Assembly (NCBI GenBank): GCA_043815245.1
Contig: JBDRJD010000014.1
Span: forward strand, 14,986-78,985
Direction of reading: 5' to 3'
From: an archaeon
GTDB lineage: Archaea; Nanobdellota; Nanobdellia; Pacearchaeales; GW2011-AR1
Length of the DNA: 64,000 nucleotides
The stretch's first letter is position 1, and every line of letters begins with the position of its first letter. Position numbers and translations under genes: made by a program. The notes under the pieces were generated by a model, which searched no databases, had not been told where the DNA came from, and was given only the letters and a program-made list of their open reading frames with translations. This document shows positions 6,322 to 60,096 of the stretch, piece after piece.

Positions 6322-6485
6322 TGGCGAGAATACCTGCTGCACAGTCAAGATTATTTAAGAATGTTTTTGTGTGTAAAAGATGCGGAACTAAACAAAGATC
6401 TGAGCCTAGAAAAATAATCACAAAAAAAGTGGCGTGTAGAAAGTGTGGTAGGAAAAACTTTAGACCTCTTAAGAGTAAGAAGTAA
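6321..6485 (+). CDS. rpl40e: Ribosomal protein L40e-like zinc-ribbon protein
   Basis: Hand-found 54-aa ORF MARIPAAQSRLFKNVFVCKRCGTKQRSEPRKIITKKVACRKCGRKNFRPLKSKK. It shows the L40e pattern (MA.FP.A..RLF, C..C...C..CG). Its start overlaps the aIF5A stop. Confidence 0.6.
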   Translation: MARIPAAQSRLFKNVFVCKRCGTKQRSEPRKIITKKVACRKCGRKNFRPLKSKK

Positions 6486-6499
6486 TTTCAAAATTTAAA

Positions 6500-7885: not shown

Positions 7886-8143
7886 GTTTAAACGAAAGTT
7901 TTTTCTTAATCAAGCAAAAATGATTTGGGGCGAAAGGTATTTAAATAAAAAAATCTTGGTTTTAATAATAAAATTTAATTAAAAAAGAGGTTAAAATGGC
8001 AAAGAAAAAGAAAGCTGCAAAGAAAACAAAGAAGAAAGCTGCAAAGAAAAAGAAGAAGAGATAAGTAAGTTTTATTTTTTTTATTTTTTTATATATTCTA
8101 ATAATTTTTTCTATAGCTTTTAAAGGAAAGGTTTAAATTTTTA

Positions 8144-44637: not shown

Positions 44638-45411
44638 ATGAGAGTTAGCATTATAATTCCAGCATATAATGAAGAGGAAGCCATAGGCAGGATCCTAGAA
44701 GAATATTGTAGCTATCTAAGAAAGCAAAGAGCGGGTTTCGAGGTCTTAGTGGTAATCAATAACACAAATGATGGAACGGAAAGAATAATCAAGGAATACC
44801 AAAAAAAATACCCTGAGATTAGATATTTAAACCTAAGAGAAGGTGGCAAGGGTTTTGCAATAATTGAGGGTTTTAAGGACGCTCTAAAAAGAAAGAACAA
44901 CGACCTAATTGGGTTTGTAGATGCAGATCTTTCAACATCTGCAAAGGAATATTACAAATTAATACGGCAATTAGGATCGTATGAAGGAATAATTGCTAGT
45001 AGGTGGTTAAAGGGGGCAAAACAAAATTACAGTTTTACTAGGAAGGTTACAAGTAGGGGTTTCAATTTTATAGTAAGGAGTTTGTTTTTGTTTCCCTATC
45101 GGGACACACAATGTGGCGCAAAAGTTTTCAAGAGGCACGCAATTGAAAGCATAGCAGAAGAAATCAAAATTACAAGATGGGCTTTTGATGTGGAATTGCT
45201 GTATAGAATAAGGAAAAAAAATTATAGGGTGAAGGAGATCCCAACATGCTGGGAGGAAAAATTAAGAAAGTCTAAATTAGATTTGAGAATAGTGCCATTG
45301 CAAATGTTTTCAGCAATGGTACGATTAAGACTGTTAAACTCCCCATTTAAATTTGTTGTGAGATTTTATGATAAAATGCCAGAGTCATTAAAGATTCACC
45401 ATAGAAGATGA
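44638..45411 (+). CDS. GT2 glycosyltransferase (dolichyl-phosphate hexose synthase-like)
   Basis: Has SIIIPAYNEEEAI...DADLS (a DxD motif) and a C-terminal amphipathic region. Confidence 0.6.
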   Translation: MRVSIIIPAYNEEEAIGRILEEYCSYLRKQRAGFEVLVVINNTNDGTERIIKEYQKKYPEIRYLNLREGGKGFAIIEGFKDALKRKNNDLIGFVDADLSTSAKEYYKLIRQLGSYEGIIASRWLKGAKQNYSFTRKVTSRGFNFIVRSLFLFPYRDTQCGAKVFKRHAIESIAEEIKITRWAFDVELLYRIRKKNYRVKEIPTCWEEKLRKSKLDLRIVPLQMFSAMVRLRLLNSPFKFVVRFYDKMPESLKIHHRR

Positions 45412-46328
45412 AGTTAAGTTTTCTGATAGCGGTGCATAATGAAGAGAAGATTTTAGCTAAAAGCCTGAGAAATTTGGTCAATTTACCTTATGAAGACTAT
45501 GAAATTATTTTGGGATTGGATGGGTGCACAGATGGTTCTGAAAATATAGTGAAGGATTTTCAGAGAAAGTATAAAAATATTAAGTACAGTAAATTGAATT
45601 TGAGGCAAGGAAAGCCGGAGGTAATAGACCATATAGTGAAACTTGCAGGAGGAGATATTCTAATTGTTAATGACGCTGATTGGATATTTAAGGTAAGAAA
45701 TAAAAAAGAACTGGAAGATTTTATTTCTGTTTTTAAAAACCCAAAAATCGGGGGAATTGCTGAATCATTTCCACTGGAGTGGGACCGGGAAAAAGTAAAG
45801 AAGGGAAATTTAGGATATAAAATGATTGCATATAGTGGGTATTTTTGGTTTAAATATCAAAGAGAAAAATTCACTTCAAGAGGGGATGGATTGATTTACT
45901 TAAAAAAACCGACAATGTTTTTAACAAACATTTATAGAAGGGAGTTGTATAAAAAGAACTTTTCATTAGGTGATGACTTTGAAAGAACAAAGAATATAAT
46001 GGATAAGGGATATAAAGTAGTTGTGTTCTCGAATGAAAATATTCCAAGGATGATAGCAGTGTATAATGAAGTATCCCTGGGGGACCTCTTTAAACAGAAG
46101 TTACGAACAGCGGTAGCAAGGGATCAGTTGAAGTGGGAGCAGGAAATAAGTATAAAAGATTACTATTTGCCAGTTGTATGGGATATATTTATAAAATCTT
46201 GGAAAAAGAGTATTAAGGTGGGATTAATAGTAAGTTTATGGATTGTTATAACTTTAGTGGGCACGGTTCTCTCAAAGTTTAAAAAAATTGACACACGGGA
46301 GGGGTGGAAGTTACGTATGAAAAGATGA
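45408..46328 (+). CDS. GT2 glycosyltransferase with C-terminal TM
   Basis: Has SFLIAVHNEEKIL...LGLDGCTDGS...NDAD. Confidence 0.5.
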   Translation: MKLSFLIAVHNEEKILAKSLRNLVNLPYEDYEIILGLDGCTDGSENIVKDFQRKYKNIKYSKLNLRQGKPEVIDHIVKLAGGDILIVNDADWIFKVRNKKELEDFISVFKNPKIGGIAESFPLEWDREKVKKGNLGYKMIAYSGYFWFKYQREKFTSRGDGLIYLKKPTMFLTNIYRRELYKKNFSLGDDFERTKNIMDKGYKVVVFSNENIPRMIAVYNEVSLGDLFKQKLRTAVARDQLKWEQEISIKDYYLPVVWDIFIKSWKKSIKVGLIVSLWIVITLVGTVLSKFKKIDTREGWKLRMKR

Positions 46329-47479
46329 AAATTTGGTTAGTTTATGACTATCTGAGTGAGGTGGGAGGGGTGGAAAGAGTAATGGCTACTCACGCACGAT
46401 GGTTCCAAGGGCAAGGACATGAAGTAAGTTTAATATTTAGTTATGTGGATGAAAAAACTAGAGAATATAGTTTTTTAAATGGGCTAGATATAAAGGAGAT
46501 GTCATCTTTTAAAATCAAAAGCGAGCCAATAAAATTATTTTCTTCGCTATTGGGTTTTAATAACTTTAAGAAACATAAAGTAGACTTTGTTATCTGTTAC
46601 TCCTTCCCTTCATTGTTTAGCACGAGGGGTATGGATTGTAAGAAAGGATTCTATTATCTTCCAATGGAGTTTGTTTATTTTCCGCTGAAGAAAAAAATAG
46701 AATGGGCCAATGACATAAAAAGGAAGCTGGCGGTTATAGGAAGTTTTTTTCTTTCTCCGGTTTTAAAAAGATGGGATAAAAAATTAATAGAGAATAAGCT
46801 GGTAATAGCCAATAGTGAGTTTACTAAAAATGAGATTAGTCAGAGGTATGGGGTGGAATCATTTGTGTCCTACCCCCCATTAAATGACGTATTTAAGCCA
46901 GAAAAAGATTACGGAAGTATTTTGGAGAAATATGGAATAAAGAAAGATTTTATACTGACGGCCGGCAGGATAATTCCTGATAAAAAAACAGATTGGTTAA
47001 TTGAAGTTTTTTCAAAAATAAAGGGAGAAATGGATTTTGTGATAGCAGGAGAGATAAGTGGAGAACACAAAGAAGAGCTTTTGAGGTTAGGTGAAAAACT
47101 GAACCTAAAAGGTAGGATTAGGATACTCGGATTAGTAAACCAAGAAGAATTAGTAAAACTTTACACAGCGGCGAAGGTATTTGTTTTTGCTTCACCAAAA
47201 GAAGCATTTGGATTAGTTCCAATTGAAGCAATGGCGTGTGGTACTCCAGTGGTAGCTTGGGACGATAAGGCTGGTCCGAATGAGTATGTGTTAAATAAAA
47301 TTAATGGATATTTAGCCAAACCCTATTCAACAATAGACTTTAAAGAAAAAGTTGAAAATGTTCTAAGGTCGGACTTTAAGAAGAAAAATAAAGTGAAGAT
47401 AATCAATTCAATAAAAAAATTTTTAGAAAAGTCTCAAGCAGATTTATTTTTAAGGAAAGTGGAGAATTATATTCAGTAG
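46304..47479 (+). CDS. GT4 (GT-B) glycosyltransferase
   Basis: Has the C-terminal EAFGLVPIEAMACGTPVVAWD (E-x7-E-like) retaining GT-B signature. Confidence 0.6.
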   Translation: MEVTYEKMKIWLVYDYLSEVGGVERVMATHARWFQGQGHEVSLIFSYVDEKTREYSFLNGLDIKEMSSFKIKSEPIKLFSSLLGFNNFKKHKVDFVICYSFPSLFSTRGMDCKKGFYYLPMEFVYFPLKKKIEWANDIKRKLAVIGSFFLSPVLKRWDKKLIENKLVIANSEFTKNEISQRYGVESFVSYPPLNDVFKPEKDYGSILEKYGIKKDFILTAGRIIPDKKTDWLIEVFSKIKGEMDFVIAGEISGEHKEELLRLGEKLNLKGRIRILGLVNQEELVKLYTAAKVFVFASPKEAFGLVPIEAMACGTPVVAWDDKAGPNEYVLNKINGYLAKPYSTIDFKEKVENVLRSDFKKKNKVKIINSIKKFLEKSQADLFLRKVENYIQ

Positions 47480-48933
47480 TGCCCCGAATATGCTTCCTTT
47501 AAAAAAGACCAAAACTTCCACTCATAGCCAAACGAAAAAAAACGAAATCTCCACCTGAGCAAGGCCGAAACTCTATAAAGGTTATTGAAAATAAAGTAGG
47601 GCAAATATAGGAACTTTGAAGGGAGGTTTTGATAAGCCATTTTAGTCTGATTGAAATAATTATATCTCACGATTGCTGAAGCGGTTTCAAGCCAGGATTT
47701 ATACCGCTTGTCTAACCAAATCTGAGATGCAAGGGTGGAAAAATTGTATTCAGACCACTCTTCAAGATTTTGAGGAAGTTTTGAGTTGAGCTTAAGACTT
47801 TCTTCAAATAAGGGGGTCCCGGGGTAGGGGGTAAATCCGAATAGTCCGTTGATGTGAGCTTTAGGATTTATTTTGTGTATCTTATCAATTGTGTTCAGAG
47901 TTTGAAGGATATCTTGTTTAGTCTCGTAGGGAAATCCACACATAAAGCTGATTACGGGAACAATGCCTGTTTGTTTGCACTTGGCTACAGTTTTTAACAT
48001 ATCATCTATTGTAATATCTTTTGTAATCATTTCTAAAACTTTTTTTGAGCCCGACTCTCCTCCAAAAGAAAGAGTGCTACAACCACTATTTTTTACGAGT
48101 TTGATAAAATCCAGGCCATATTTAGCAAAGTAATCAAATCTACAAGAAGTGGTCCAGTCTATCTTGATGTTCTCATCAATTAACCCTTTGGATATTTTTT
48201 CAACTCTACTTTTATCAACAAAAAACTCATCTTCTGTAAACTCTAAACCTTTTGTATTAGTTAAGTTAATTATTCTCTTGATATCTGCTAGCACCTTATC
48301 AGCATCGCGGGCACGCCATCTCCTCTTGTTAAAGGCAGTGTTGTAACAGAACTTACATCTGTGAGGGCAACCTCTGCTGGAATTATAGGGGAAATGGCCT
48401 AGGGTTGTTTTTGATTTGTTAGAGTCATAAAGCTCGTAAGCCATGGGGGGAAGGTCATTTAGATTCATAAAGGGCCTGTCAGAATTAGAGATGACTTGAC
48501 CTTTTTTGTCCTTATAGGTAAGCCCTTTAATTTTGCTTAGCGAAGTTTTTTTTACTAAAGCCTTGGCTAATTCAATGGCTGTGATCTCCCCTTCACCTCT
48601 TACAACAATATCCACGTTTTTGTTTAAAACAGACTGTGTAGGAAGTAGTGTAACATGAATGCCCCCCCAAACAACAGGAATTTGGGGATACTTTCTTTTG
48701 ATATATTCTGAAAATTTTAAGGCATATTTAAGTTGTTTTCCAGTTAAGGTGGATACCCCAACAAACACAGAATCCGAATAATCAAATTTCGTGTAATCTT
48801 GAAAGCGCAAGTCTATAATTTTAACTTCAAAACCGTTCTTAACAAGAACTGAACCGATAGCTAATAGTGAAAGGGGTAGCCTTGTTAAGTGAGTTTTTTC
48901 GTCTGGATAAACTAAAAATATTTTCCGGCCCAT
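47473..48933 (-). CDS. B12-binding radical SAM (class B) enzyme
   Basis: Has an N-terminal cobalamin-binding Rossmann region and CPHRCKFCYN (CX3CX2C). Confidence 0.6.
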   Translation of the reverse strand: MGRKIFLVYPDEKTHLTRLPLSLLAIGSVLVKNGFEVKIIDLRFQDYTKFDYSDSVFVGVSTLTGKQLKYALKFSEYIKRKYPQIPVVWGGIHVTLLPTQSVLNKNVDIVVRGEGEITAIELAKALVKKTSLSKIKGLTYKDKKGQVISNSDRPFMNLNDLPPMAYELYDSNKSKTTLGHFPYNSSRGCPHRCKFCYNTAFNKRRWRARDADKVLADIKRIINLTNTKGLEFTEDEFFVDKSRVEKISKGLIDENIKIDWTTSCRFDYFAKYGLDFIKLVKNSGCSTLSFGGESGSKKVLEMITKDITIDDMLKTVAKCKQTGIVPVISFMCGFPYETKQDILQTLNTIDKIHKINPKAHINGLFGFTPYPGTPLFEESLKLNSKLPQNLEEWSEYNFSTLASQIWLDKRYKSWLETASAIVRYNYFNQTKMAYQNLPSKFLYLPYFIFNNLYRVSALLRWRFRFFSFGYEWKFWSFLKEAYSGHY

Positions 48934-48969: not shown

Positions 48970-50049
48970 TTATGTTTTAGAATATAAGAGATAGAGGATC
49001 TTTTTACTCGCCTTTCCGTCACCAAATGGGTTTTCCCAATTCTTTTGCCTGGAAATCATTAATTTAGTGCAATCTAAAATTTTCAGAGGGTCATAGCCGG
49101 CCAAAAGATTACCCCCAGCATCAATAGTTTCTGGACGCTCAGTATTTTCCCTAAGAGTTACGCAAGGAATTTTCAGAATGCAAGTTTCTTCTTGAATGCC
49201 TCCTGAATCTGTTAATACAAGTCTTGAATTTGTTAATAACTGCAAAAAATCAAGGTAGCCAAGAGGTTCAATTAGTTTTATGTGCTCTGAAACTTTAAGG
49301 CCAAATTCAGAGACCATTTTCTTTGTACGCGGATGGATGGGATAAATCAAAGGTAATTTAAACTCTTCGTATACAAGACTTAATCCTTGTAGGATTTTTT
49401 TAAGTCTTTCTTTATTATCCACATTTTCTTGCCTATGCATGGTGACTAAAAAATATTTATTTTTTTGTAGGTCGAGCTCAGAGAGAATGTTTGACTTTCT
49501 TTGAGATATCTCTAGATTTTGATGTAATGCATCAACAATTGTGTTTCCAGTCACAAATATCTTATCCCGGGGTATGCTCTCCCGGAGTAGTATCTGTTTT
49601 GCATTTTCAGTTGGAGCAAATAAATAATCTGAAATGTGATCAGTTACGATTCTATTAGTTTCTTCTGGCATGCTCCGATCATAGCTTCTTAAGCCCGCTT
49701 CAATATGTCCTACTTGAATCCCGAGTTTGCTTGCAGCAAGTGCTCCTGCAAGAACGGTATTTGTATCCCCTTCTACTAAAACAACCGCGGGATTCTGAGA
49801 CTTAAGAACTTTCTCAATTTCTATAAGCATCTTGCCAGTTTGTTCTCCATGGGGGGCTGACCCAATATTGAGATTGAATGTTGCGGGTGGTAAGTCCAGT
49901 TCCTCAAAAAATATTTTATCCATATTTTCAGAGTAGTGTTGATTGGTATGGATAATTAGGTATTCTTTTTCTAAAGAAGAAAGTTCTCGGATAAGGGGAC
50001 TAATCTTGATAATTTCGGGACGTGTGCCAAGGATTATAGCTATTTTCAC
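48970..50049 (-). CDS. wecB: UDP-N-acetylglucosamine 2-epimerase (non-hydrolysing, WecB-like)
   Basis: Begins MKIAIILGTRPEIIKISPLI, with HIEAGLRS and a DSGGIQEE-type C-terminus. Confidence 0.7.
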   Translation of the reverse strand: MKIAIILGTRPEIIKISPLIRELSSLEKEYLIIHTNQHYSENMDKIFFEELDLPPATFNLNIGSAPHGEQTGKMLIEIEKVLKSQNPAVVLVEGDTNTVLAGALAASKLGIQVGHIEAGLRSYDRSMPEETNRIVTDHISDYLFAPTENAKQILLRESIPRDKIFVTGNTIVDALHQNLEISQRKSNILSELDLQKNKYFLVTMHRQENVDNKERLKKILQGLSLVYEEFKLPLIYPIHPRTKKMVSEFGLKVSEHIKLIEPLGYLDFLQLLTNSRLVLTDSGGIQEETCILKIPCVTLRENTERPETIDAGGNLLAGYDPLKILDCTKLMISRQKNWENPFGDGKASKKILYLLYSKT

Positions 50050-50050
50050 T

Positions 50051-51679
50051 TTAGTTTCTTAAAATTTCATATACAAAAACACCGTCAAATATTTGCGACA
50101 GTTTAAAAGTTAGGCTGCCATATGATTTTTCTTGTTTTATGTCTTGTTGACCTGTATTAAAGTCTATAGTAGTATCCATAAAAGGAATCTCCCATTTTTG
50201 TTGAGATTCACGCTTCATCCAATCTGGATGGTTTGGTTCCCAAAATGAGATTAATAGAAATCTAATTGCTGGGTCTTCCTCTATTTTAGGTAGTACTTCT
50301 TCGAAAGTTGTATCTTGATTGTACTGCACTCCTACAAGCTCAGCAGGGCTAACCATCTGCCTTTCAGCATAGTAGGAGAATTGAGGAGTTAAAACAATAA
50401 GAGTTTTGTCTGATGGAGAGGTCCGATCCTTAATGTAAAATGAAGCGTCCTTAACCCCGTTGAAACTACTTATTTTAGACTTGATAATCGTATCAGCATG
50501 CTGAACTTCATAGAAAGCACCATAGGCTAGCAATACAAGGATAATGACCAGAGCAATCTGTTTATTATATTTTTTAAGGTTATCATAAATAAATATGGCC
50601 CCCTTTGCAAGGCAAATTAAGGAACCGAAAAGCAGCGGGAAGAACCATCTCGGCTCACCAATGTCAGTTGGATGTCTTTGGTAAAACAAAAAGTAGGACA
50701 ACACAATGATTATTGATAAAACTGCAAATAATTCACTTTTAATCTCACTTTTACCAACCTTTCTAAAGTAATCAAGTGATAAAAAAGTATTTATTAAAAG
50801 CAAAATGAATCCAAGCCAGAATAAATAAAGTAAAATGCTAAGTGTGGAACTGGTAAATGAACTAAAATATGCAGGAAATATTTGGAAGGGGAAGAGATTA
50901 AAGGGAATTTCAGTATGTAGATAGATTCCAGCCACCTCAGTAATATTAGAGGCAAATACAAATTTCTCTAAAAGAGAGAAACTTACTATAAACACGGCTA
51001 AAGCTATCCAGTTGTACTTATCCTTTAAGAGTGAAGACCACTTACGAGTAATTAGCATATAAAAAAAGAAAAAGAAACCAAAAAGAAAATACCCTCTCCT
51101 CATAGAGTAGGATAAAACGACAAATAATACAGTTAGTGGAACTGCCCAGTTAGGATTAATCTTCCCAAATATTTTTTCTCCGCCTTCGTATCCTTGCCAG
51201 AAGACATAGATCGCTAAAAGACCGAAGAATAATCCTGGGACACCTAAATGGAATCTCATTGAGTTAAATAACACTACCCAGAAAGTGGCCATTAAAAACG
51301 AGGCAATTAGCCCCACCTTTTTATCTTTAAACATTAAAACGGCAGTTGCATAGGTGAGCCAGATAAGTAGGATGGAAGGTAGAATCTCTAATATAAATTT
51401 TATGGCAGGGTCAGAGAACCCTATCTTAAATAAAGCCGCTACAAAATAAATAAATAGAGAATTATGGGCATCGGAAACCATCCAGTAGGTAGTGTACCCT
51501 CCAAGAGCTTTAGCATAGGCCATATAGTCCCCTTCATCCCACCATATTGCCTGGTCCTTTGTGAGAAAAAAATAATAAAGCCTGATAGCTACGCCTAAGA
51601 TAAATATTCCCAAAAAAATTCTATTATAGGGATCTTTTAACCAATTTCTGACACTCTCTTTTATTTTACTAATTTCCAT
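50051..51679 (-). CDS. GT-C fold glycosyltransferase (ArnT / PMT-like, GT39/GT83)
   Basis: A 542-aa polytopic protein with an N-terminal WWDEGDY loop motif after TM1 and a soluble C-terminal domain. Confidence 0.5.
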   Translation of the reverse strand: MEISKIKESVRNWLKDPYNRIFLGIFILGVAIRLYYFFLTKDQAIWWDEGDYMAYAKALGGYTTYWMVSDAHNSLFIYFVAALFKIGFSDPAIKFILEILPSILLIWLTYATAVLMFKDKKVGLIASFLMATFWVVLFNSMRFHLGVPGLFFGLLAIYVFWQGYEGGEKIFGKINPNWAVPLTVLFVVLSYSMRRGYFLFGFFFFFYMLITRKWSSLLKDKYNWIALAVFIVSFSLLEKFVFASNITEVAGIYLHTEIPFNLFPFQIFPAYFSSFTSSTLSILLYLFWLGFILLLINTFLSLDYFRKVGKSEIKSELFAVLSIIIVLSYFLFYQRHPTDIGEPRWFFPLLFGSLICLAKGAIFIYDNLKKYNKQIALVIILVLLAYGAFYEVQHADTIIKSKISSFNGVKDASFYIKDRTSPSDKTLIVLTPQFSYYAERQMVSPAELVGVQYNQDTTFEEVLPKIEEDPAIRFLLISFWEPNHPDWMKRESQQKWEIPFMDTTIDFNTGQQDIKQEKSYGSLTFKLSQIFDGVFVYEILRN

Positions 51680-53069
51680 TTTTTATTTTTTCTATAATCT
51701 TTGATGTAGATTTGCCAGTTGTTAATGGGACAAATTTAAACTCTCCGCAATATGACTCTACAGCTCTTCGCTCTTTTTGGTCCATAAGTTCAAGATTATA
51801 ATCTGAACCTTTTACATATATGTCAGGATTTAGTTCTATTAAGTACTTTTCTACAGATGATTCTGGGAATATGAGAATGTAATCTACAAATTCTAGGGAA
51901 GAAAGTATCTCGGCTCTTTCACTTTCAGACTGTAGGGGGCGTGAAGGACCTTTTAAAGCTCTGACAGAAGAATCAGAATTAAGACCAATAATTAATAAGT
52001 CTCCTAGCTTTTTTGCGTCTTGTAAGTATCTTACATGACCTACATGCAGTAAATCAAAACAACCATTGGTCCAGACTATTTTCCTTCCTTTTCTTTTTGC
52101 ATCTTGAGCTTGCTTTTTTAGCTCTTCGAGACTAATTACTTTCTTGAATTCTGAGAGAAACTTGTTTTTTAACTCACTGGAACTTACTGAATATGTGCCT
52201 TTCTTCTCTACAGCAATTCCAGCAGCATGATTAGCAATAATTGCTGCTTCTTCTAATGGGGAACTAGTTGCAAGCGCAAGTGCAAGTGTAGCTATAACTG
52301 TGTCCCCAGCGCCAGTTACATCATAAACTTCTTTTGCAAAAGTTGGAATCTCGGTAGTTTTATCTGAAAAAAGAATCATTCCTCTCTCTCCATGAGTTAT
52401 CAAGATGTTTGAGTTAAGCTCTTGTCTTAGCTTTTCTCCGGCCTGATAAATGTCTGAGCAGCCAGCCATTTCGAGGGCTTCTCTTTCATTTGACTTTATG
52501 AGTAAAACTCCATTGTATAGATTTTTATTTTTTGGCTTTGGATCTACAATAATCTTGCTTTTAAAATTAGATATTAAGGAGATAAGCTCTGAAGATATGG
52601 CACCTTTTGCATAATCTGAAAGGATTATTATATCAGATTCTGAGGCGTATTTAATTAATTGTTGTTTTACCTGATCTGAAAAGCTTTTTTCTGCGAATAT
52701 TTCTTTATCATACCTCAGTAATTGCTGGCCCTTTCCTATAATTCTTGTTTTTTGGATTGTGTCATATCTGTTGTCTAGAAGGTGTTTTATGTTTTTCCCA
52801 TCCATTAGCGTTTTCAGAATTTCGGATTCAGAGTCATTTCCACAAAAAGAAACAATAGTTGCTGATCCACCCAATGAAGCAATGTTGGAGGCAACGTTTC
52901 CGGCCCCTCCAATCTCGTGAAATTCTTTTTTTATATGAACGATTGGAACTGGCGCTTCTGGATTTATTCTTGTAACATCTCCTTCAAAATACTTGTCAAG
53001 CATAATGTCTCCTATGACTAGTACTCTTTTTTCTTTAAACTGATTAACGACCTCACTAAGCGCTTTCAT
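51669..53069 (-). CDS. hldE: Bifunctional D-glycero-beta-D-manno-heptose-7-phosphate kinase / heptose-1-phosphate adenylyltransferase (HldE/RfaE)
   Basis: Has an N-terminal PfkB ribokinase-like domain (VLVIGDIMLDKY...GAGDT) and a C-terminal cytidylyltransferase-like domain (WTNGCFDLLHVGHVRYL). Confidence 0.75.
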   Translation of the reverse strand: MKALSEVVNQFKEKRVLVIGDIMLDKYFEGDVTRINPEAPVPIVHIKKEFHEIGGAGNVASNIASLGGSATIVSFCGNDSESEILKTLMDGKNIKHLLDNRYDTIQKTRIIGKGQQLLRYDKEIFAEKSFSDQVKQQLIKYASESDIIILSDYAKGAISSELISLISNFKSKIIVDPKPKNKNLYNGVLLIKSNEREALEMAGCSDIYQAGEKLRQELNSNILITHGERGMILFSDKTTEIPTFAKEVYDVTGAGDTVIATLALALATSSPLEEAAIIANHAAGIAVEKKGTYSVSSSELKNKFLSEFKKVISLEELKKQAQDAKRKGRKIVWTNGCFDLLHVGHVRYLQDAKKLGDLLIIGLNSDSSVRALKGPSRPLQSESERAEILSSLEFVDYILIFPESSVEKYLIELNPDIYVKGSDYNLELMDQKERRAVESYCGEFKFVPLTTGKSTSKIIEKIKNGN

Positions 53070-53583
53070 TTTCTTGAAGTATTACCTTAACAGACTCATA
53101 TAAATCTTTTGTTTTTTGAATAGATAGTTTTTCGGTGTAGCGGGATTCGATTAGTACCGCCTTGCAACCTAACTTTTCGGCTGGTTTTATGTCTGTGAGT
53201 TTATCTCCAACAATCCAACATTTCTCGGGGGAGAGGCTAAATTTTTTTATTGAATCTAAAAATAATTTAGTTGAGGGTTTCCTACAATCACAGTTTTTAT
53301 CTGGATCATGCGGACAGTACAGAATATCATCGAATTCTATATTTTGTTTTTTGAAAACTTGGACCATATTCTCTGTTATTTTTAGGTAGTCCTGCTCTGA
53401 GTAGTACCCAAGGCCTATACCTGACTGATTTGTGATAATGATAAGTCTATAACCGGCTTTTTTAATTTTTTTCAGAGCCTCAAAAACTCTAGGAAGAATT
53501 TTAAAATCTTCAGTTTTATGGACATAGCCTCTATCTTCGTTAATCACACCGTCACGGTCTAAAAATACAGCTTTATTTTCCAT
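53056..53583 (-). CDS. gmhB: D-glycero-D-manno-heptose 1,7-bisphosphate phosphatase (GmhB, HAD-IIIA)
   Basis: Has VFLDRDGVINED and a CxC...C zinc site (CPHDPDKNCDCRKP). Confidence 0.7.
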   Translation of the reverse strand: MENKAVFLDRDGVINEDRGYVHKTEDFKILPRVFEALKKIKKAGYRLIIITNQSGIGLGYYSEQDYLKITENMVQVFKKQNIEFDDILYCPHDPDKNCDCRKPSTKLFLDSIKKFSLSPEKCWIVGDKLTDIKPAEKLGCKAVLIESRYTEKLSIQKTKDLYESVKVILQENESA

Positions 53584-53597
53584 TTTTAATAATTAGC

Positions 53598-54170
53598 TCA
53601 ATTAGCAACAAACTCATCTTCTATTAATTTAGCTAGAATATGAAGAATCAAAATATGAACTTCTTGAATCCTTGCAGTGTTTTGAACAGGAACAATTAAG
53701 TCTACTTCCCCTAAACCCTTCATTTTTCCACCGTCTCTTCCTAACAAGTTGATGACTTGCATGTTCCTTTCTCTTGCCTTTTCTATTGTTCTTAGTATAT
53801 TACCTGAATTACCAGAGGTACTAAGTCCAATAAGGATGTCTCCGGGGTTGCCAAGTGCTTCAACTTGCCTTGCAAAAACCACCTCATAGCCATAATCATT
53901 TGACAGGGCTGTAAGGTTGGAAGTGTCTACAGTCAAAGAAATGCAGGGAAGTCCTTTTCGCTCTGCTTCAAATCTTCCAACCAGTTCAGCAGTAAAGTGT
54001 TGAGCTTGTGCGGCGCTGCCACCATTACCACAGATAAGTAATTTATTCCCCTTTTTAATTGCTTCAATGATCATGTGGGATGCCTTTTCAATCAAGGGGA
54101 TAGAATCATAGATGGATTTTTGAGCTCCCAGGCTATCATTAATTAAACTTCTTATAATCTCTTGAGACAT
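53598..54170 (-). CDS. gmhA: Phosphoheptose (sedoheptulose-7-phosphate) isomerase GmhA (SIS domain)
   Basis: Has ICGNGGSAAQAQHFTAELVGRFEAERKGLPCISLT...STSGNS. Confidence 0.75.
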   Translation of the reverse strand: MSQEIIRSLINDSLGAQKSIYDSIPLIEKASHMIIEAIKKGNKLLICGNGGSAAQAQHFTAELVGRFEAERKGLPCISLTVDTSNLTALSNDYGYEVVFARQVEALGNPGDILIGLSTSGNSGNILRTIEKARERNMQVINLLGRDGGKMKGLGEVDLIVPVQNTARIQEVHILILHILAKLIEDEFVAN

Positions 54171-54183
54171 AAATATGTAAGAA

Positions 54184-55284
54184 TTAGAGGTTATTTAAAA
54201 TTTCTTGTGCTGAAATGCTACCTGCTAATTCTTCTGAATATTTCATAGAAAAAAAGTATTTTTCTAATAAGGGGGAAACAAGTTTCTTAGCAATTCCATA
54301 ATCTTCAATTTCCCAGGGGGGAGTTGAATAAAACAAGGCCACTGTTGGCTTTTTCAATAGGAGGGATAAATGTAGGGCTAGGGAATCTGTGGTGACAACT
54401 TTTTCGCATAAGTTGATTACTGCTGCAAATTCTCCAACTGTATTATCTGGATTATTTGAAGTAACTACTATCCCTGTAGATTTAAGCTCATTAATTAACT
54501 CGGGGATTTTGCCTCTTTCTTCTGGACCTCCTAAAAGTAAAACTTTATAGTTTTTGTTTAGCCCATTGATTAGTTCTTTAAGTTTCTCATTTGAAATGGC
54601 CTTAGAAGGCCATCTTTCCCCTGCTGAGAAATTTATTCCAATTAGTTTATCGGAGTCTGAGAGATTATTCATTTTCCTGAAATTATTAGCATACTGCTTG
54701 TCCTTGGTAGTCGCATGGAATACCATTTCTTCCCCATTGTATTCCAAATGACAGGCTTGAAAGATTAGCTGTTGGTATGTCTTTCTGTTAGACAGCTTAA
54801 CGTTGTGTAAAAAGGCAGTTTCAAGGTACTCTTCACTCCCTACATTAAAACAGGAAGTAGCCGCATTGTCAAAGTAATATCCATACTTTTCCTCAGCTTG
54901 AACAATATTTGCTAGAAGTGTCGCTGGAGTGGTTATTTCTAGTGAGAAAAGGATATCAAATTTTTCTTGTTGAATTCTTAGGATGTTTTCAGGATTGTAT
55001 GTCAGGAGTTTATCAATATGGGGGTTGTTTTCAAGTAGTTCTTTAGATTCTAGCATTGTAAACCAATAAATTAAGGCTTCATCACCGTATTTCTTTTTTA
55101 GGGCTTCTAGAATTGGGGTGGTTCTAAGAACGTCTCCCATAGCTCCTAGTTTAATAATGAGTATTTTTTTGGAGTGTGGAGAAGAGAATTTGCATTCTTC
55201 ACAGGACTTATAGCCTTCGCTAGTTAAGGTATCGCATGCATACTTCTCATTAAAAAACCTACATCTCGAGTTCCACTTAGTCAT
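54184..55284 (-). CDS. GT9 heptosyltransferase with N-terminal Cys-rich extension
   Basis: Has ILIIKLGAMGDVLRTTPILEAL, typical of the ADP-heptose:LPS heptosyltransferase family. About 40 N-terminal residues carry four Cys (CRFF...C...CEEC). Confidence 0.6.
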   Translation of the reverse strand: MTKWNSRCRFFNEKYACDTLTSEGYKSCEECKFSSPHSKKILIIKLGAMGDVLRTTPILEALKKKYGDEALIYWFTMLESKELLENNPHIDKLLTYNPENILRIQQEKFDILFSLEITTPATLLANIVQAEEKYGYYFDNAATSCFNVGSEEYLETAFLHNVKLSNRKTYQQLIFQACHLEYNGEEMVFHATTKDKQYANNFRKMNNLSDSDKLIGINFSAGERWPSKAISNEKLKELINGLNKNYKVLLLGGPEERGKIPELINELKSTGIVVTSNNPDNTVGEFAAVINLCEKVVTTDSLALHLSLLLKKPTVALFYSTPPWEIEDYGIAKKLVSPLLEKYFFSMKYSEELAGSISAQEILNNL

Positions 55285-55354
55285 GGGGATACTATATTTG
55301 GAGTGTTTAAAAATTTATGGAAAAGCTTAAAATAAGCTTAGATATAGGAGATAC

Positions 55355-55759
55355 ATGAAAAAAATATACATTGCGGGAAAATTATGTTCAGAAGAGGAAA
55401 GAGCCCTACTTGAGGGGGTGGATAAGTTCTGTAAGGCAGAGGGATTTGACACCTTTTTACCTCACAGGGATGTAGGGGTGATAGCGTTTAAAGAAGAGAT
55501 AAAAAGAGCGTTTAAAGAAGATGTAAAAGCTTTAGATGAATGTGATTTTGTACTTGCAGTATTAAACGGGAAACCTGGAAGCGGAACAGTATGGGAAATA
55601 GGTTATGCCTACTCAATCAAAAAGCCGATTATAGGATTAAAAACAGATAAAAAAGTTGAAGATTCAATACCGGAACTAAGTGCGATGGTTTTAGGCAGTG
55701 TTAAAATTTTACAAAGCTTTGAAGAGTTAAAAGAAGAGCTGTTCAATCTAAAGGGCTAG
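55355..55759 (+). CDS. Nucleoside 2-deoxyribosyltransferase-like protein
   Basis: Has IYIAGKL...FLPHRD...GTVWEIGYAYSIKKPIIGL, which fits the NDT fold motif. Confidence 0.45.
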   Translation: MKKIYIAGKLCSEEERALLEGVDKFCKAEGFDTFLPHRDVGVIAFKEEIKRAFKEDVKALDECDFVLAVLNGKPGSGTVWEIGYAYSIKKPIIGLKTDKKVEDSIPELSAMVLGSVKILQSFEELKEELFNLKG

Positions 55760-56651
55760 TTGATTTTGTTTTTTCTATACGCCATCCATCTTGATAGCCT
55801 TTTTTCCGGATTTTTAGATCATAAAAAGCAGTTAGATAAATGCAGAGTCTAGCTAAAAAAAGCAGGCATGTCCAATAAAACTCTTTTATGCTTCTGGGGT
55901 AGGATAAAGCAAAAAAAGTACCTTCTTTTATCTCATTAAAAAAAGACTTTGTTCTAGGCATATTTTTGGCAATTTTATTAAGATTTTCATGGGCTTTAAT
56001 ATTCCTAATTTTTTGAACCTTCCACTCTTTCCAATTATCAGGAGAAACAACATAAACTTTCGCCTGGGGAACATACTTTATTTTGTAGCCTTTTTCCCAA
56101 AATAAGTGAGGGATAATGCTATCTTCTGAAGTTTCTAAAGGAAACCCCTGCAATGCCCCATTTCTTATTGCAAACAAATAACCAGAACACTCAAAAAAAG
56201 CTCTTTTTTTAGAGATCTTCTCTCTTACTCTATGGATACCGTCAAACAATAAGTGGCTCCAAAAACCAAGAGCACTATTTTTTTTGTTTAAAGAAACAGG
56301 TCGGCCAGTTATGCAACCAATTTTTTTATCTTTAAATGCCTCGAAAATTGAAGCTACTGAATTTTCAGATACATAAACGTCTCCATCTGTGAGAATAATT
56401 AGATCAGATGTATCTTTAGAGTATATTTGTTCAAATAGAACATTTAGAGCATAACTTTTTCCTTCACCAGGATCCAAAAAAAACTCAACTTTCTTGTTTT
56501 TTATATTTTTCTTAATAAACTTTTCAGTTTCTGGAAAAGGGTCTACTACAATTATTTTAAAGGGTTGGTTGATCTTTTGGGATAAGAAGGAATTAATCGA
56601 CTTAAGAGTGGATTTCGGTTCCCCATATGCGGTTATGATTATGTGGATCAT
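55743..56651 (-). CDS. GT2 glycosyltransferase
   Basis: Begins MIHIIITAYGEPKSTLKSI, with ILTDGDVY (a DxD-like motif). Confidence 0.5.
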   Translation of the reverse strand: MIHIIITAYGEPKSTLKSINSFLSQKINQPFKIIVVDPFPETEKFIKKNIKNKKVEFFLDPGEGKSYALNVLFEQIYSKDTSDLIILTDGDVYVSENSVASIFEAFKDKKIGCITGRPVSLNKKNSALGFWSHLLFDGIHRVREKISKKRAFFECSGYLFAIRNGALQGFPLETSEDSIIPHLFWEKGYKIKYVPQAKVYVVSPDNWKEWKVQKIRNIKAHENLNKIAKNMPRTKSFFNEIKEGTFFALSYPRSIKEFYWTCLLFLARLCIYLTAFYDLKIRKKGYQDGWRIEKTKSTSPLD

Positions 56652-56961: not shown

Positions 56962-57654
56962 ATGAAGGAAGCAATTATTCTTGTTTCAGGTGGACTTGAC
57001 AGTTATGTTACTGCGTGGTATGCTAAAAAGGTAGGCAAAAGAAAAGTTAAGCTCTTATTTTTTGATTATGGGCAGAAGGGAATAGAAGAAGAGCTGTTTT
57101 GCACTCAAAAGCTAGCAGGAGAGTTAAAGGCTAGATTAAAGATAGTTGACATAAAATGGTTGGGAGAAATCAGCACTTCTCTGATAAATAAAAACAAGAA
57201 AACAGGAAAAACAGAGATAATTAAGTGGTATGTTCCGTGTAGGAACGCGGTATTTTTGACTGCTGCACTTGCATATGCTGAGTCAGAATTTCTGTCAAAA
57301 AACAAGAAGAGTGATATCTACCTAGGGGTAAAGTATGAAGGGGAAATAAGTTTTAATGACACTAAAGAGGCTTTTATAAGAAAAGTAAATGAATTAAGCA
57401 AGGTGGCTACACAAAAAGGAAGTTACAAGATAGTGACCCCCTTTATAAAAAAGGATAAAGAAGAAATTATAAATCTGGCAAAGAAAATGGGCCTTGATTT
57501 GGAGCAAACTTATAGTTGCTACAGGAGTAATGAGTTTGCGAGGGTTAACAATAAGAAAATTCCAATTCATTGTGGGGACTGTGCTGGTTGTAAGGCAAGA
57601 AAGAAAGGATTCAGGTTCTCAGAAATAAAAGATCCGAGCATATATGTAAAATGA
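56962..57654 (+). CDS. QueC/ExsB-family PP-loop ATP pyrophosphatase (QueC or WbpG-like glycan amidotransferase)
   Basis: Has an N-terminal ILVSGGLDSYV PP-loop and a C-terminal zinc site (CYRS...HCGDCAGCKARKKGF). Confidence 0.55.
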   Translation: MKEAIILVSGGLDSYVTAWYAKKVGKRKVKLLFFDYGQKGIEEELFCTQKLAGELKARLKIVDIKWLGEISTSLINKNKKTGKTEIIKWYVPCRNAVFLTAALAYAESEFLSKNKKSDIYLGVKYEGEISFNDTKEAFIRKVNELSKVATQKGSYKIVTPFIKKDKEEIINLAKKMGLDLEQTYSCYRSNEFARVNNKKIPIHCGDCAGCKARKKGFRFSEIKDPSIYVK

Positions 57655-58148
57655 ATGAAAAAATAGTTATTGTAAATAAAAAGGATGAAGTTATAGGTTA
57701 CAAAGACAGGGAGCTGGCTGAAAAAGATATCTACAGGGTTTCGGCATTATGGATTAAAAATTCTAAAAACGAGTTTTTATTAGCCAGAAGAGCTTATACA
57801 AAAAGCCATAGTCCAGGAAAATGGGGGCCAGCTGTTGCAGGAACTGTTGAAAAGGGGGAAACTTATAAAAAGAATATGATTAAAGAAGTTAAAGAAGAAC
57901 TTGGATTAGAAAGTTTAAATCTAGTAAAAGGTCCAAAGTTATATCATGAAAAAGAGCATAGGTATTTTGTGCAGTGGTTTTTATTAGTAATTGATAGAGA
58001 AATTTCCAAGTTTAGATTTGATAAAAAAGAGGTGGCTGAAATAAAGTGGTTTTCTAAAAAAGAATTTTTAAATCAAATAAATAGTAACCCGGAAGAGTTT
58101 ATCCCAAGTATTGAGGGATACTCCCATTTGTTTCAAGATGAAATTTGA
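57651..58148 (+). CDS. Nudix hydrolase
   Basis: Has the Nudix box GTVEKGETYKKNMIKEVKEELGL. Confidence 0.6.
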   Translation: MNEKIVIVNKKDEVIGYKDRELAEKDIYRVSALWIKNSKNEFLLARRAYTKSHSPGKWGPAVAGTVEKGETYKKNMIKEVKEELGLESLNLVKGPKLYHEKEHRYFVQWFLLVIDREISKFRFDKKEVAEIKWFSKKEFLNQINSNPEEFIPSIEGYSHLFQDEI

Positions 58149-58983
58149 CTATAAAAAGTACAATGAGGAAAAGTACGAGCAGGATTTTTGGACGATTAAT
58201 AGGTCAAAATATAAGTGGTTTAGCAACTATGTGAGACTGAAGATATTTAAAAAGTGGTGTTTAAGTGTAAAAAATAAAGGGGCATTTCTTGATGTTGGAG
58301 GAGGTGTAGGAAACTGGGCATTTCATTTTTTGGATTATTTTGAAAAAGTGATTGTGCTCGATATTTCAAAGAAAGCTCTGGAAAAAATTCCTGAAAAAGA
58401 GATAATAAAAAAGCAGGGGAGTGCTGATAAGATTCCTTTAAAGTCCAAGACAGTGGACTGCATTCTTTTAGCAGATGTATTGGAACATATACATCCTTCT
58501 GATTTGAATAAAGTTATGAAAGAGCTAAAAAGAGTTTTAAAAGATAATGGGAGGATAGTGATTCAAACTTCACTCTATGGTTATGGGATAGGGTTGGTTT
58601 TTAAGCGTGTTTTCAAAAAAATGAACGGTAGGTTGATGAAGTCTGAGATGAAGGAGGGGCATTTAAACAGGCTGAAATTTAATGAGATTAAAAGCCTTGC
58701 AAAAAAGAATGGGTTAATAATTGAAGACTATCTTTTTTACAGTATAATTTTTCAGCAACTAACTGACTTTATCAAAGACTTAACAGCAAAAGCCATGAGC
58801 AAGGAGAGTAAGCATATAAGAAAGGGTCAGGAATTAAAAGATAGGTTGAAAAAAGTTGAAAAACCAAGTAAGGTATTTAGAATGATATTTGGAACTTTCT
58901 CAAGAATATCTTACTTAGATATCATACTATTTGGGAAAATTTTGCCAGGACAGGGAATCTTCTTAAAACTAAGAAAGAATTAG
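58111..58983 (+). CDS. Class I SAM-dependent methyltransferase
   Basis: Has FLDVGGGVGNW (motif I) and ADVLEHI. The start may be the internal Met at 58138. Confidence 0.6.
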   Translation: MRDTPICFKMKFDYKKYNEEKYEQDFWTINRSKYKWFSNYVRLKIFKKWCLSVKNKGAFLDVGGGVGNWAFHFLDYFEKVIVLDISKKALEKIPEKEIIKKQGSADKIPLKSKTVDCILLADVLEHIHPSDLNKVMKELKRVLKDNGRIVIQTSLYGYGIGLVFKRVFKKMNGRLMKSEMKEGHLNRLKFNEIKSLAKKNGLIIEDYLFYSIIFQQLTDFIKDLTAKAMSKESKHIRKGQELKDRLKKVEKPSKVFRMIFGTFSRISYLDIILFGKILPGQGIFLKLRKN

Positions 58984-60096
58984 TTTCTCTATTTTGCCGA
59001 TTAGAATATCCCATCTAAACTCTTCAGCTTTTATTCTCGCTTGTTTTTGTATTTCTTTTATTCTTCGTAAGTTTTTTTTAGCTAAAATAAATAAAATCAC
59101 TTCAGATAGATTTTTTTCATCTCCGGTTTTAAACAAAAAACCGTCTTTCTTATCAGAGATTATCTCCTTTCCTGCTTTATTATCTGAAGAGATGACTATT
59201 TTACCGACAGCCATTGCTTCCACTAGGGCTTGGGGCATTGCCTCAGAAATAGATGGTAAAACAAAAATGTCAGTATTCCTCAAGGCATCAACACGCTCCC
59301 GTAGGGAGTATACTGGGGGGAAGAACCTTAGATTCCTGATTTTTAATTTGGAGGCTAAATTTTTAAGGTTACTAGTGCAAGGCTGTTCTTGGGGCCCAGT
59401 TATTTTAAGCTTTAGTTGGGGATACTCGGTTGAAACCAATTTAAAGGATTTGATAAGTGTTTCAAGATTTTTTATGTTTGCTATTCTTCCAAAAAATAAA
59501 ATTGAGTCCCCATTAAATTGCGAAATTTTTGGTTTAAAAAATTCTTTTGGGATGCCATTTGGAACATAACTTATTTTTTCTTTCTTTGCTCCGAGAGCCA
59601 AGAGAAAGGGGGCCTCCCACTTAGTAATTGTGATAATCCTGTCAAACTCATTTAGTATTCTCCTAGCAATAAATTTATCATAAATTGAAACTGCCACTTT
59701 AGAAAAAAATGAACGTGTTGAGTTCCCTTCAATAAATGGGGCGTGCGTCACAAGAAAAACTTTGGCATTTATTTTTTTCGCTATTTTTAGTGCTTTAGTA
59801 GTATGCAGGTGCCTGTAACTGTGGGCAATGATGATATCCGGCCTTAACTTAATTGCTTCTGCAGTAAAGTCCCAGGACATAAAACTTTCCCCCCCTAATT
59901 TTTTAGTTGGAAATCGCTTTATTTTAACTCTTCCTAGAGTATCTTCAGGTAAAGCAAGCTCGCCAGAACCTTTTGTAATATCTGAGGAAAAAATATAAAC
60001 CTCATATTTTTTAGATAAAAGCTCTGCTTCTTGTTTGACTCTTTGCCAAACACCGCAAACTCCTGCTGAATAGTTGGTTAGTTCTAAAATTCTCAT
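58969..60096 (-). CDS. GT4 (GT-B) glycosyltransferase
   Basis: Has the C-terminal SEAMPQALVEAMAVGKIVISSD motif. Confidence 0.6.
   Translation of the reverse strand: MRILELTNYSAGVCGVWQRVKQEAELLSKKYEVYIFSSDITKGSGELALPEDTLGRVKIKRFPTKKLGGESFMSWDFTAEAIKLRPDIIIAHSYRHLHTTKALKIAKKINAKVFLVTHAPFIEGNSTRSFFSKVAVSIYDKFIARRILNEFDRIITITKWEAPFLLALGAKKEKISYVPNGIPKEFFKPKISQFNGDSILFFGRIANIKNLETLIKSFKLVSTEYPQLKLKITGPQEQPCTSNLKNLASKLKIRNLRFFPPVYSLRERVDALRNTDIFVLPSISEAMPQALVEAMAVGKIVISSDNKAGKEIISDKKDGFLFKTGDEKNLSEVILFILAKKNLRRIKEIQKQARIKAEEFRWDILIGKIEKLILS

Follow-up and report, generated by a model that had tools for sequence, protein, structure and literature searches.

Heptose genes in an AglB glycosylation island of a Pacearchaeota-type archaeon and their probable role in surface glycosylation

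Why would an archaeon, a cell without lipopolysaccharide (LPS), encode the enzymes for a nucleotide-activated manno-heptose? The question is raised by a seven-gene operon on contig JBDRJD010000014.1 of assembly GCA_043815245.1, analyzed here over positions 14,986 to 78,985; this stretch, referred to as the window, represents 64 kb of the 96-kb contig (95,967 bp), and coordinates are those of the window unless a related locus is named. The reading favored here, which is held to be probable though well short of certain, is that the heptose pathway serves as the sugar-supply module of AglB-dependent surface glycosylation and is an old trait of DPANN archaea. The operon extends on the minus strand from 55284 to 47473 in the order GT9a-GmhA-GmhB-HldE-GT-C-WecB-radical SAM, where GT denotes glycosyltransferase and SAM S-adenosylmethionine; the region upstream and the genes with their predicted products are as follows.

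55285-55354, no strand: divergent intergenic region of 70 nt located 5' of GT9a
54184-55284, minus: GT9a, family-9 (heptosyltransferase-type) GT-B glycosyltransferase, first gene of the operon (366 aa; Pfam PF01075)
53598-54170, minus: GmhA, sedoheptulose-7-phosphate isomerase (190 aa; TIGR00441)
53056-53583, minus: GmhB, heptose-1,7-bisphosphate 7-phosphatase (175 aa; NF006506, TIGR00213)
51669-53069, minus: HldE, fused heptose-7-phosphate kinase and heptose-1-phosphate nucleotidyltransferase (466 aa; PfkB domain at residues ~8-305, nucleotidyltransferase domain at residues ~320-464)
50051-51679, minus: membrane glycosyltransferase of predicted GT-C fold (PMT_2/ArnT-like, 'GT39'; AlphaFold2 model, Foldseek and family alignment)
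48970-50049, minus: WecB-type non-hydrolysing UDP-GlcNAc 2-epimerase (TIGR00236, 444.3 bits, cutoff 210.15)
47473-48933, minus: radical SAM enzyme that closes the operon (Pfam Radical_SAM and B12-binding)

Spacers and overlaps in gene order are 13, 14, -14, -11, 1 and 36 nt, with the GmhB and HldE reading frames overlapping by 14 nt, the GT-C gene overlapping the HldE stop codon by 11 nt, and a single nucleotide separating the GT-C gene from WecB. Within the divergent intergenic region, an A/T-rich TTTTTAAA box located ~30 nt before the GT9a ATG is a candidate archaeal TATA box, as judged by its position and composition; a scan with a bacterial promoter and terminator model returned chance-level counts, which carry no meaning for an archaeal host. 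The radical SAM enzyme may be a putative sugar C-methylase.

The first question is whether the three central genes encode what their names imply. GmhA scores 229.1 bits on TIGR00441 (cutoff 209.45), its closest PDB relative is Campylobacter GmhA (1tk9, 2e-56), and it aligns with E. coli K-12 GmhA at 44% identity. The E. coli residues H61, E65, S119-T-S-G, Q172 and H180 have their equivalents in H58, E62, STSG, Q169 and H177, which we take, from the E. coli and B. pseudomallei structures, to fill the catalytic and metal-site roles. The DiaA model yielded only 162.5 bits (cutoff 352). GmhB reaches the cutoff of NF006506 (178 bits for both) and exceeds that of TIGR00213 (157.1 bits, cutoff 149.6); E. 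coli GmhB is its closest PDB relative (3l8e, 1.7e-29), with 35% identity between the window protein and its K-12 counterpart. The HAD-IIIA signature D9xD11, TNQSG, K102, GDKxxD and the zinc site C90/H92/C98/C100 are all retained, the zinc loop being 7 aa shorter than in E. coli. A histidinol phosphatase in place of GmhB was considered as well; the HisB models stayed under their cutoffs and the protein has no IGPD domain.

For HldE, the top family is NF008454 over the full length (444.5 bits, cutoff 521), with 183.3 bits for rfaE domain II (cutoff 181.5) and 315.3 bits for domain I (cutoff 345); the Pfam matches are PfkB (137.8 bits) and CTP_transf_like (67.4 bits). Its PDB relatives are the Burkholderia heptose-7-phosphate kinase HldA (4e84, 2e-53) and the Burkholderia HldC (5x9q, 3e-27), identity to E. 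coli K-12 HldE is 40%, and DVTGAGDT (250-257), the HxGH motif as H342-V-G-H345 and KGxDY are conserved. A generic ribokinase model gave 83.6 bits only, versus 444.5 on the HldE model, and a glycerol-3-phosphate cytidylyltransferase model gave 55.4 bits. An identical HldE protein is already present in GenBank under the name bifunctional heptose kinase/adenylyltransferase.

Taken together, the family models, PDB relatives and retained catalytic motifs support GmhA, GmhB and HldE as genuine heptose-pathway enzymes rather than generic SIS, ribokinase or cytidylyltransferase proteins. An earlier note on this DNA had arrived at the same pathway and had placed its genes contiguously on one strand beside a family 9 glycosyltransferase; the open reading frames were found exactly where it put them on the minus strand, with GT9a 13 nt from GmhA. 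Neither of the alternatives it had named, HldE as a generic ribokinase/cytidylyltransferase pair and GmhA as a different SIS protein, was borne out.

Because of this family membership and these conserved residues, four biosynthetic steps can be proposed. GmhA would convert sedoheptulose-7-phosphate into D-glycero-D-manno-heptose-7-phosphate, the PfkB-type N-terminal domain of HldE would phosphorylate C1 to give the beta-1,7-bisphosphate, GmhB would remove the 7-phosphate, and the nucleotidyltransferase domain of HldE would complete the activation. A preference of GmhB for the beta anomer is suggested indirectly, as the protein scores 178 bits on the beta-type model versus 136.3 bits on the alpha-type model NF050049 (under its cutoff of 250), and its partner kinase belongs to the HldA type, whose product is the beta anomer. 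The activating nucleotide is probably ADP. This assignment is uncertain because the fifth position of the specificity motif (L449-T-T-G-K453-S-T-S456, versus FEDGCSTT in E. coli) is a lysine, being neither the cysteine of E. coli nor the arginine that confers CTP and UTP use in the STTR5 enzymes with the motif (F/L)XXGRSTT (PMC11461863, PMC11573728). The window HldE departs from that promiscuous motif both in Lys453 (LTTGKSTS) and in its final serine. Among the 120 HldE homologues listed, the motif was found in 113, with lysine being the commonest residue at this position (52/113) and arginine occurring in 8/113.

The second question concerns the heptose isomer, as the bacterial pathway continues with the epimerase HldD. 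Queries with E. coli RfaD and an archaeal HldD-like protein detected no HldD in the 64-kb window by six-frame tblastn (best E=0.4-1.4), the RfaD query being also run as phmmer --max; in control loci the same queries did pick up HldD, with E-values of 1e-28 to 1e-51. The absence of HldD reported previously thus holds for 64 kb of the 96-kb contig. Nine contexts with a fused HldE were compared, namely the window and the related loci L001, L002, L073, L074, L075, L078, L079 and L080. No HldD-grade gene was found within 8-10 kb on each side in the eight relatives, where the top matches are generic short-chain dehydrogenases/reductases (SDRs; E=1e-8 to 1e-16). A different arrangement is seen in loci with split kinase and nucleotidyltransferase genes, of which 11 of 13 carry a full-length HldD homologue (E=1e-28 to 1e-41) directly upstream of the kinase gene; of the other two, L019 has a partial HldD match only and L012 begins at the kinase gene, so that it cannot be assessed. 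For the HldD-like protein of L014, the heptose_epim model TIGR02197 gives 264 bits (cutoff 274.6), versus 124 for GalE. The split-type clusters (L013-L024, e.g. L014 6744-10756) are arranged HldD-HldA-GmhB-HldC, followed by a GT2 resembling AglJ and dolichyl-phosphate-hexose transferases, with a GT9 and an AglB-like gene upstream.

DPANN archaea possess two heptose cluster types, one with a fused HldE and without HldD, the other with split genes and HldD. As no HldD is linked to the pathway here or in the fused-type relatives, the D,D form is probably used directly, and it is plausible that this applies to the fused type in general; the two types would then predict D,D-heptose and L,D-heptose glycans, respectively. 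The contrary possibility is that L-glycero-D-manno-heptose is made after all by an HldD encoded outside the window, its absence being an artefact of 64 kb. The search covered part of one contig, DPANN archaea of the sister, split type do carry HldD, and the separation of GmhA and GmhB from HldE in L001 and L078 shows that pathway genes can scatter. Nevertheless, none of the eight fused-type contexts contains an HldD-grade match, and lineages that have HldD tend to cluster it, as in 11/13 split-type loci where it adjoins the kinase. An unlinked HldD is considered unlikely on balance.

A third question is to whom these genes belong. The ribosomal operon of the window is archaeal (L19e, L32e, S4e, L5e-type L18 and SecY), and its SecY shares 90% identity with the SecY of another metagenome-assembled genome (MAG) named 'archaeon' and 73-80% with those of Ca. 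Pacearchaeota and Nanoarchaeota; both tRNAs and all composition measures of the window are unremarkable. By these sequence markers, together with an AglB bearing WWDYG, the host is a DPANN archaeon of the Pacearchaeota type, in accordance with the archaeal host inferred before. The heptose cassette has a GC content of 0.360 versus 0.365 in the ribosomal operon, per-gene third-position GC (GC3) z-scores of -1.6 to +0.1 and a correlation of relative synonymous codon usage (RSCU) of r=0.91. The best 120 homologues listed are 48-70% identical, and all named ones are from Nanoarchaeota, Pacearchaeota or an 'archaeon'; in a scan of one genome per species, identities were 45-62% for Woesearchaeota and Nanoarchaeota, 37-46% for bacteria, and 38-42% for full-length fused bacterial HldEs. 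In a neighbor-joining tree of the kinase domain (Kimura distance, 49 sequences, 296 columns), where the bacteria are those found by a peptide-pattern scan and unnamed metagenomic homologues are assumed to be archaeal, 97/100 bootstraps separated the DPANN sequences, as a single clan, from the sampled bacteria, and the fused and split DPANN types each formed a clan in 100/100.

The earlier note had interpreted the genes as a horizontally acquired bacterial cassette and had proposed phylogenies and a GC and codon comparison with the ribosomal operon as checks. Understood as a recent import, that interpretation is contradicted by the composition, by the archaeal homologues and by the kinase-domain clan, and it is rejected on these sequence grounds. 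A recently transferred set of LPS-core genes, or bacterial DNA brought in by mis-binning or chimeric assembly, in either case with no part in archaeal physiology, would be in keeping with a pathway best known from Gram-negative LPS core synthesis and with nearest characterised homologues that are bacterial (35-44% identity). However, the genes share a contig with the archaeal ribosomal operon and AglB, they cannot be told apart from the other parts of the window by composition or codon usage, their listed homologues are archaeal wherever named and separate from bacteria in the tree, and synteny with other DPANN MAGs extends over more than 10 genes, which leaves a foreign fragment with hardly any probability and effectively refutes it. 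An ancient transfer between the domains, in either direction, may have occurred, and the heptose module is proposed to be an old, lineage-wide trait of DPANN archaea.

What, then, is the heptose used for? The operon lies in a ~25-kb AglB N-glycosylation island, whose AglB, priming enzyme and flippase are located 5-13 kb from the heptose genes and are convergent with the operon. The island includes the following genes.

39660-42380, plus: AglB/STT3 oligosaccharyltransferase (Pfam STT3 PF02516, 69.3 bits)
42382-43401, plus: GT4-family polyprenyl-phosphate N-acetylhexosamine-1-phosphate transferase, priming (Glycos_transf_4, 110.3 bits)
43398-44624, plus: Wzx-type flippase (Polysacc_synt_3, Polysacc_synt)
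44638-47479, plus: two GT2 and one GT1/GT4-type glycosyltransferase
55355-55759, plus: nucleoside 2-deoxyribosyltransferase (NDT)-like gene (Pfam; syntenic with the core in L001, L073 and L078)
55743-56651, minus: GT2 (Pfam; same order in L001, L073 and L078)
56962-57654, plus: QueC-like PP-loop ATPase
58969-60096, minus: GT1/GT4-type glycosyltransferase adjoining GT9b (Glycos_transf_1, 106.4 bits)
60097-61161, minus: GT9b, second family-9 glycosyltransferase (PF01075, 67.8 bits; D51 and D292 retained)

AglB carries WWDYG at residue 610 and the DxD motif D68-L-D70 in its first loop. GT9a matches Pfam PF01075 with 56.3 bits (cutoff 22), and its best PDB matches are the Veillonella GT9 3tov (5.5e-15) and WaaF (1psw, 2e-4); Asp13 and Asp261 of WaaC have their equivalents in D51 and D300. 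On the equivalog models of LPS heptosyltransferases, GT9a scores at best 64 bits (cutoff 170.2), GT9b scores 99.5 bits on the WaaQ-like model (cutoff 467), and identity of the GT9s to WaaC is ~20%. Use of ADP-heptose as the donor of both GT9s is suggested by their family membership and by their adjacency to heptose genes. A TibC/AAH-type protein heptosyltransferase was considered for GT9a; the PDB search at E<=0.1 returned only 3tov, WaaF 1psw and one chance match.

The 38-aa N-terminal extension of GT9a with four cysteines (C8, C17, C28, C31) is kept in the L073 orthologue (6903-8012) and missing from those of L001, L078 and L080. In L078 (8586-9956) and L080 (7990-9372), the orthologues instead end in a fused C-terminal NUDIX hydrolase domain, a hint of a connection between the GT9 and NDP-sugar turnover. 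The Nudix gene of the window (57651-58148) matches these fused domains weakly (E=1e-6 over ~65 aa), and orthology is not claimed.

In LPS synthesis, heptosyltransferases modify a glycolipid that is anchored in the membrane, and they do so on its cytoplasmic side. Because of the gene context and by analogy, the cytoplasmic GT-B enzymes GT9a and GT9b would add heptose to an oligosaccharide carried on dolichol phosphate, for which the GT4-family enzyme would provide the priming step and the GT2 and GT1 enzymes the extension; the Wzx-like flippase would then flip the glycan, and AglB would link it to asparagines of surface proteins. On the outer face, the co-translated GT-C would draw on a lipid-phosphate donor to attach one more sugar. 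The glycosylation role suggested earlier fits this AglB island, as protein or cell-surface glycosylation.

For the GT-C enzyme itself, a Pfam search gave no family at E<=0.001, and the looser threshold of E<=1 brought up nothing relevant. Its family comprises 234 detected homologues (E<=1e-5), the named ones being from Pacearchaeota, Nanoarchaeota or an 'archaeon', and often annotated by NCBI as 'glycosyltransferase family 39'. In an alignment of 30 family members, the first-loop motif W46-W-D-E-x-D-Y52 (WWDExDY) is invariant, 13/30 members match PMT_2 (best 9e-11) and 8/30 match PMT. The AlphaFold2 model (predicted local distance difference test, pLDDT, 91.3; predicted TM-score, pTM, 0.89) has significant Foldseek matches exclusively to the GT-C fold (E 2e-10 to 5e-5, TM 0.49-0.60), including STT3/AglB/PglB (TM 0.52-0.60), ArnT (0.55), ALG9/12 and Pmt4; a profile search of the PDB with the family alignment gave chance matches only (E~0.7). 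The invariant motif, family matches and modeled fold together point to a GT-C glycosyltransferase. A second oligosaccharyltransferase is not indicated, as the protein lacks the C-terminal WWDYG, unlike the true AglB at 39660.

Enzymes of the GT-C class work on the outer membrane face with lipid-phosphate-linked donors, and a different route for the heptose can be drawn from this gene. A GT2 would make dolichol-phosphate-heptose, which would be flipped and used by the GT-C outside, either on a protein-bound glycan or directly on protein Ser/Thr as in PMT, with the GT9s serving another step or acceptor; comparable routes are Dol-P-Man/AglS in Haloferax and Und-P-Ara4N/ArnT in bacteria (Dol-P and Und-P denoting dolichol and undecaprenyl phosphate). 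The overlap of the GT-C gene with HldE and its synteny in four other loci speak for such a route, as do the fold and the DE motif, which match ArnT/PMT-type users of polyprenyl-phosphate monosaccharides, the AglJ-like GT2 located directly after HldC in split-type clusters, and the weak AglJ/ArnC likeness of the first GT2 of the island (44638-45411; TIGR04182 AglJ, 50.7 bits; undecaprenyl-phosphate-Ara4FN transferase, 44.3 bits). All GT2 matches are however far under their cutoffs, the GT-C may simply use dolichol-phosphate-hexose, and the GT9s present are the established consumers of ADP-heptose. Moreover, known GT2 synthases of polyprenyl-phosphate sugars take UDP- or GDP-sugars, and we know of no description of a polyprenyl-phosphate-heptose. 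This route is rated as quite unlikely. A combination, in which D-glycero-D-manno-heptose reaches surface glycoproteins in a manner with no bacterial counterpart, through GT9s acting on dolichol-linked acceptors as well as a GT-C using dolichol-phosphate-heptose, and in which the lysine motif of HldE might even give CDP- or UDP-heptose, is more speculative and is put forward with considerable doubt; if true, it would answer why archaea make manno-heptose.

Delivery by the GT9s to an AglB-transferred glycan draws further support from the related loci. The GT9-HldE-GT-C core occurs in five of the nine fused-type contexts (window, L001, L073, L078 and L080), orthologues of GT9a adjoining HldE and the GT-C being syntenic with it in all four relatives. 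The nearest relative, L073 (HldE 70% and SecY 90% identical), has a block of AglB-GT4-flippase-GT2-GT9-GT2-GT1-GT-C-HldE-GmhB-x-GmhA-GT9, continuing with NDT-GT2-x-QueC-radical SAM. L080 comprises the GT9-NUDIX fusion, GmhA, HldE, GT-C, methyltransferases, three GT2s, flippase, GT4 and AglB. The AglB-GT4-flippase order is common to the window, L073 and L080, and GT2-NDT-GT9-HldE-GT-C is kept in L001 and L078. Linkage between AglB and heptose genes is seen in L073, L080, L014, L016, L019 and L020, representing both cluster types; split-type clusters have GT9 and AglB-like genes within a few kb, with GT9b-like genes 3-4 kb upstream. Genes resembling B12-radical SAM enzymes are found beside heptose genes in L073, L075, L078, L021 and L024.

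Further genes accompany the pathway in individual loci. The NDT-like (55355-55759), QueC-like (56962-57654) and B12-radical SAM (47473-48933) genes of the window have counterparts with the GT9-HldE-GT-C core in L001, L073 and L078. L075 contains GmhA-HldE-GmhB with a flippase and without GT9 or GT-C; on this Pacearchaeota contig (9450-19020), GmhA-HldE precedes a 521-aa protein containing a GmhB-type HAD domain, followed by the flippase, an SDR, a B12-radical SAM enzyme and a transketolase that is divided into N and C halves and may supply sedoheptulose-7-phosphate. In the syntenic Woesearchaeota locus L001, a generic SDR gene beside GT9a (5952-6902, minus; dTDP-glucose 4,6-dehydratase-like, 155.6 bits, versus 92.9 on heptose_epim) could encode a modifier of heptose, e.g. 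towards 6-deoxyheptose.

Several observations weigh against a glycosylation module of this kind. Full-length HldE and its kinase domain fall under their NCBIfam equivalog cutoffs, and GT9a and GT9b are far under every LPS heptosyltransferase model. The GT-C is tied to heptose by position only. GmhA and GmhB are missing beside HldE in L001 and L078, and HldE stands alone, away from glycosylation genes, in L002, L074 and L079. HldD may lie elsewhere in the genome, the search having covered 64 kb, and the tree is a distance tree of one domain with bacteria only as the pattern scan happened to find them.

DPANN archaea are often episymbionts, which counts in favor of a quite different use, in which NDP-heptose would mainly leave the cell in free form as a signal to a host rather than act as a glycosyl donor. 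NDP-heptoses are agonists of ALPK1 and archaeal enzymes can make them (PMC11461863, PMC11573728), and a role as a pathogen-associated molecular pattern had been raised for this archaeon. This idea finds no support here, as ALPK1/TIFA occurs in vertebrates only (PMC11573728), the sample names of several related loci refer to groundwater or an aquifer, and no export function is linked to the pathway. The pathway lies amid a full glycan-assembly island with two GT9 genes, and these two genes argue that the nucleotide sugar is consumed as a donor. A signaling role is rated as extremely improbable.

The remaining features of the island and the window bear on the glycan and its possible acceptors. 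The far side of the island contains the GT2, NDT-like, QueC-like, Nudix, methyltransferase, GT1, GT9b and sulfotransferase-like genes. The last of these (61216-62322, plus), located beside GT9b, encodes a weakly sulfotransferase-like protein (Sulfotransfer_1, E=8.5e-5) with a hydrophobic C-terminus that may sulfate the glycan. At the island edge, gene 62303-63769 (minus) encodes a fusion of a sugar-1-phosphate nucleotidyltransferase N-terminal domain with a class-I glutamine amidotransferase/peptidase C26 domain, the latter being gamma-glutamyl-CDP-amidate hydrolase-like (107 bits). A 1061-aa protein encoded at 13272-16457 (minus) has no Pfam family, a signal-peptide-like N-terminus and a C-terminal transmembrane anchor with a basic tail. 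It contains 52 N-X-S/T sequons, or 4.9 per 100 aa versus 0.36 in six cytoplasmic proteins of the window, and is regarded as a candidate glycoprotein of the S-layer or cell surface that AglB is likely to modify.

A literature search on DPANN and heptose returned nothing relevant to the heptose pathway, and much of the wider background is established, with functional archaeal heptose enzymes, an HldE already named in GenBank and a heptose in an archaeal N-glycan, so that the novelty is modest. What the locus adds is that gene context addresses why archaea make manno-heptose, together with the dichotomy between fused clusters without HldD and split clusters with HldD. The location of the pathway in an AglB island with two GT9s and a GT-C, here and in several DPANN relatives, offers a testable answer, namely that heptose builds surface glycoproteins.

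Among known systems are the enzymes reported by Tang et al. (Science 2024, doi 10.1126/science.adk7314); according to accounts of that report in PMC11461863 and PMC11573728, archaeal heptose biosynthetic enzymes are functional and produce ADP-heptose in vitro; as described there, these enzymes, like those of the window, comprise a didomain kinase/nucleotidyltransferase ('HENase'), an isomerase and a phosphatase. The physiological role of archaeal heptose 'remains elusive' and neighboring genes might hint at it (PMC11573728). The bacterial ADP-L-glycero-beta-D-manno-heptose pathway (GmhA, HldE or HldA and HldC, GmhB, and HldD, with WaaC/WaaF/WaaQ) shares with the window the same four activities and motifs, the fusion of a PfkB kinase with a cytidylyltransferase-like nucleotidyltransferase, and GT9s encoded alongside, at 35-44% identity to the E. 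coli enzymes. It differs in that the window belongs to an archaeon without LPS, has no HldD, requires an acceptor other than Kdo2-lipid A, and places the genes inside an AglB island beside a GT-C. The GDP-D-glycero-alpha-D-manno-heptose pathway (GmhA, HddA, GmhB and HddC), known from Gram-positive S-layer glycans and Campylobacter capsules, needs no HldD step to provide D,D-heptose for protein or capsule glycans and has GmhA and GmhB in common with the window, whereas the window kinase is of the PfkB/HldA type, not the GHMP-type HddA, and the nucleotidyltransferase is of the HldC rather than the HddC type; the sole NTP_transferase of the window (62303-63769) scores 35.8 bits versus 300 on HddC. 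In Thermoplasma acidophilum and Thermoplasmatales, the N-glycan contains D-glycero-D-galacto-heptose (PMC11407970, PMC12448462), which is a precedent for heptose in an archaeal AglB-type N-glycan, although it is the galacto isomer in another lineage; the comparison is made at the level of the glycan. Finally, the Agl system of Haloferax volcanii (AglJ/AglD, AglR, AglS and AglB) has no heptose, and the window GT2 and GT-C proteins match AglJ, AglD and AglS weakly, but the two share the logic of assembly on dolichol phosphate, flipping and AglB transfer, with a separate GT-C adding the final sugar outside from a dolichol-phosphate-linked donor.

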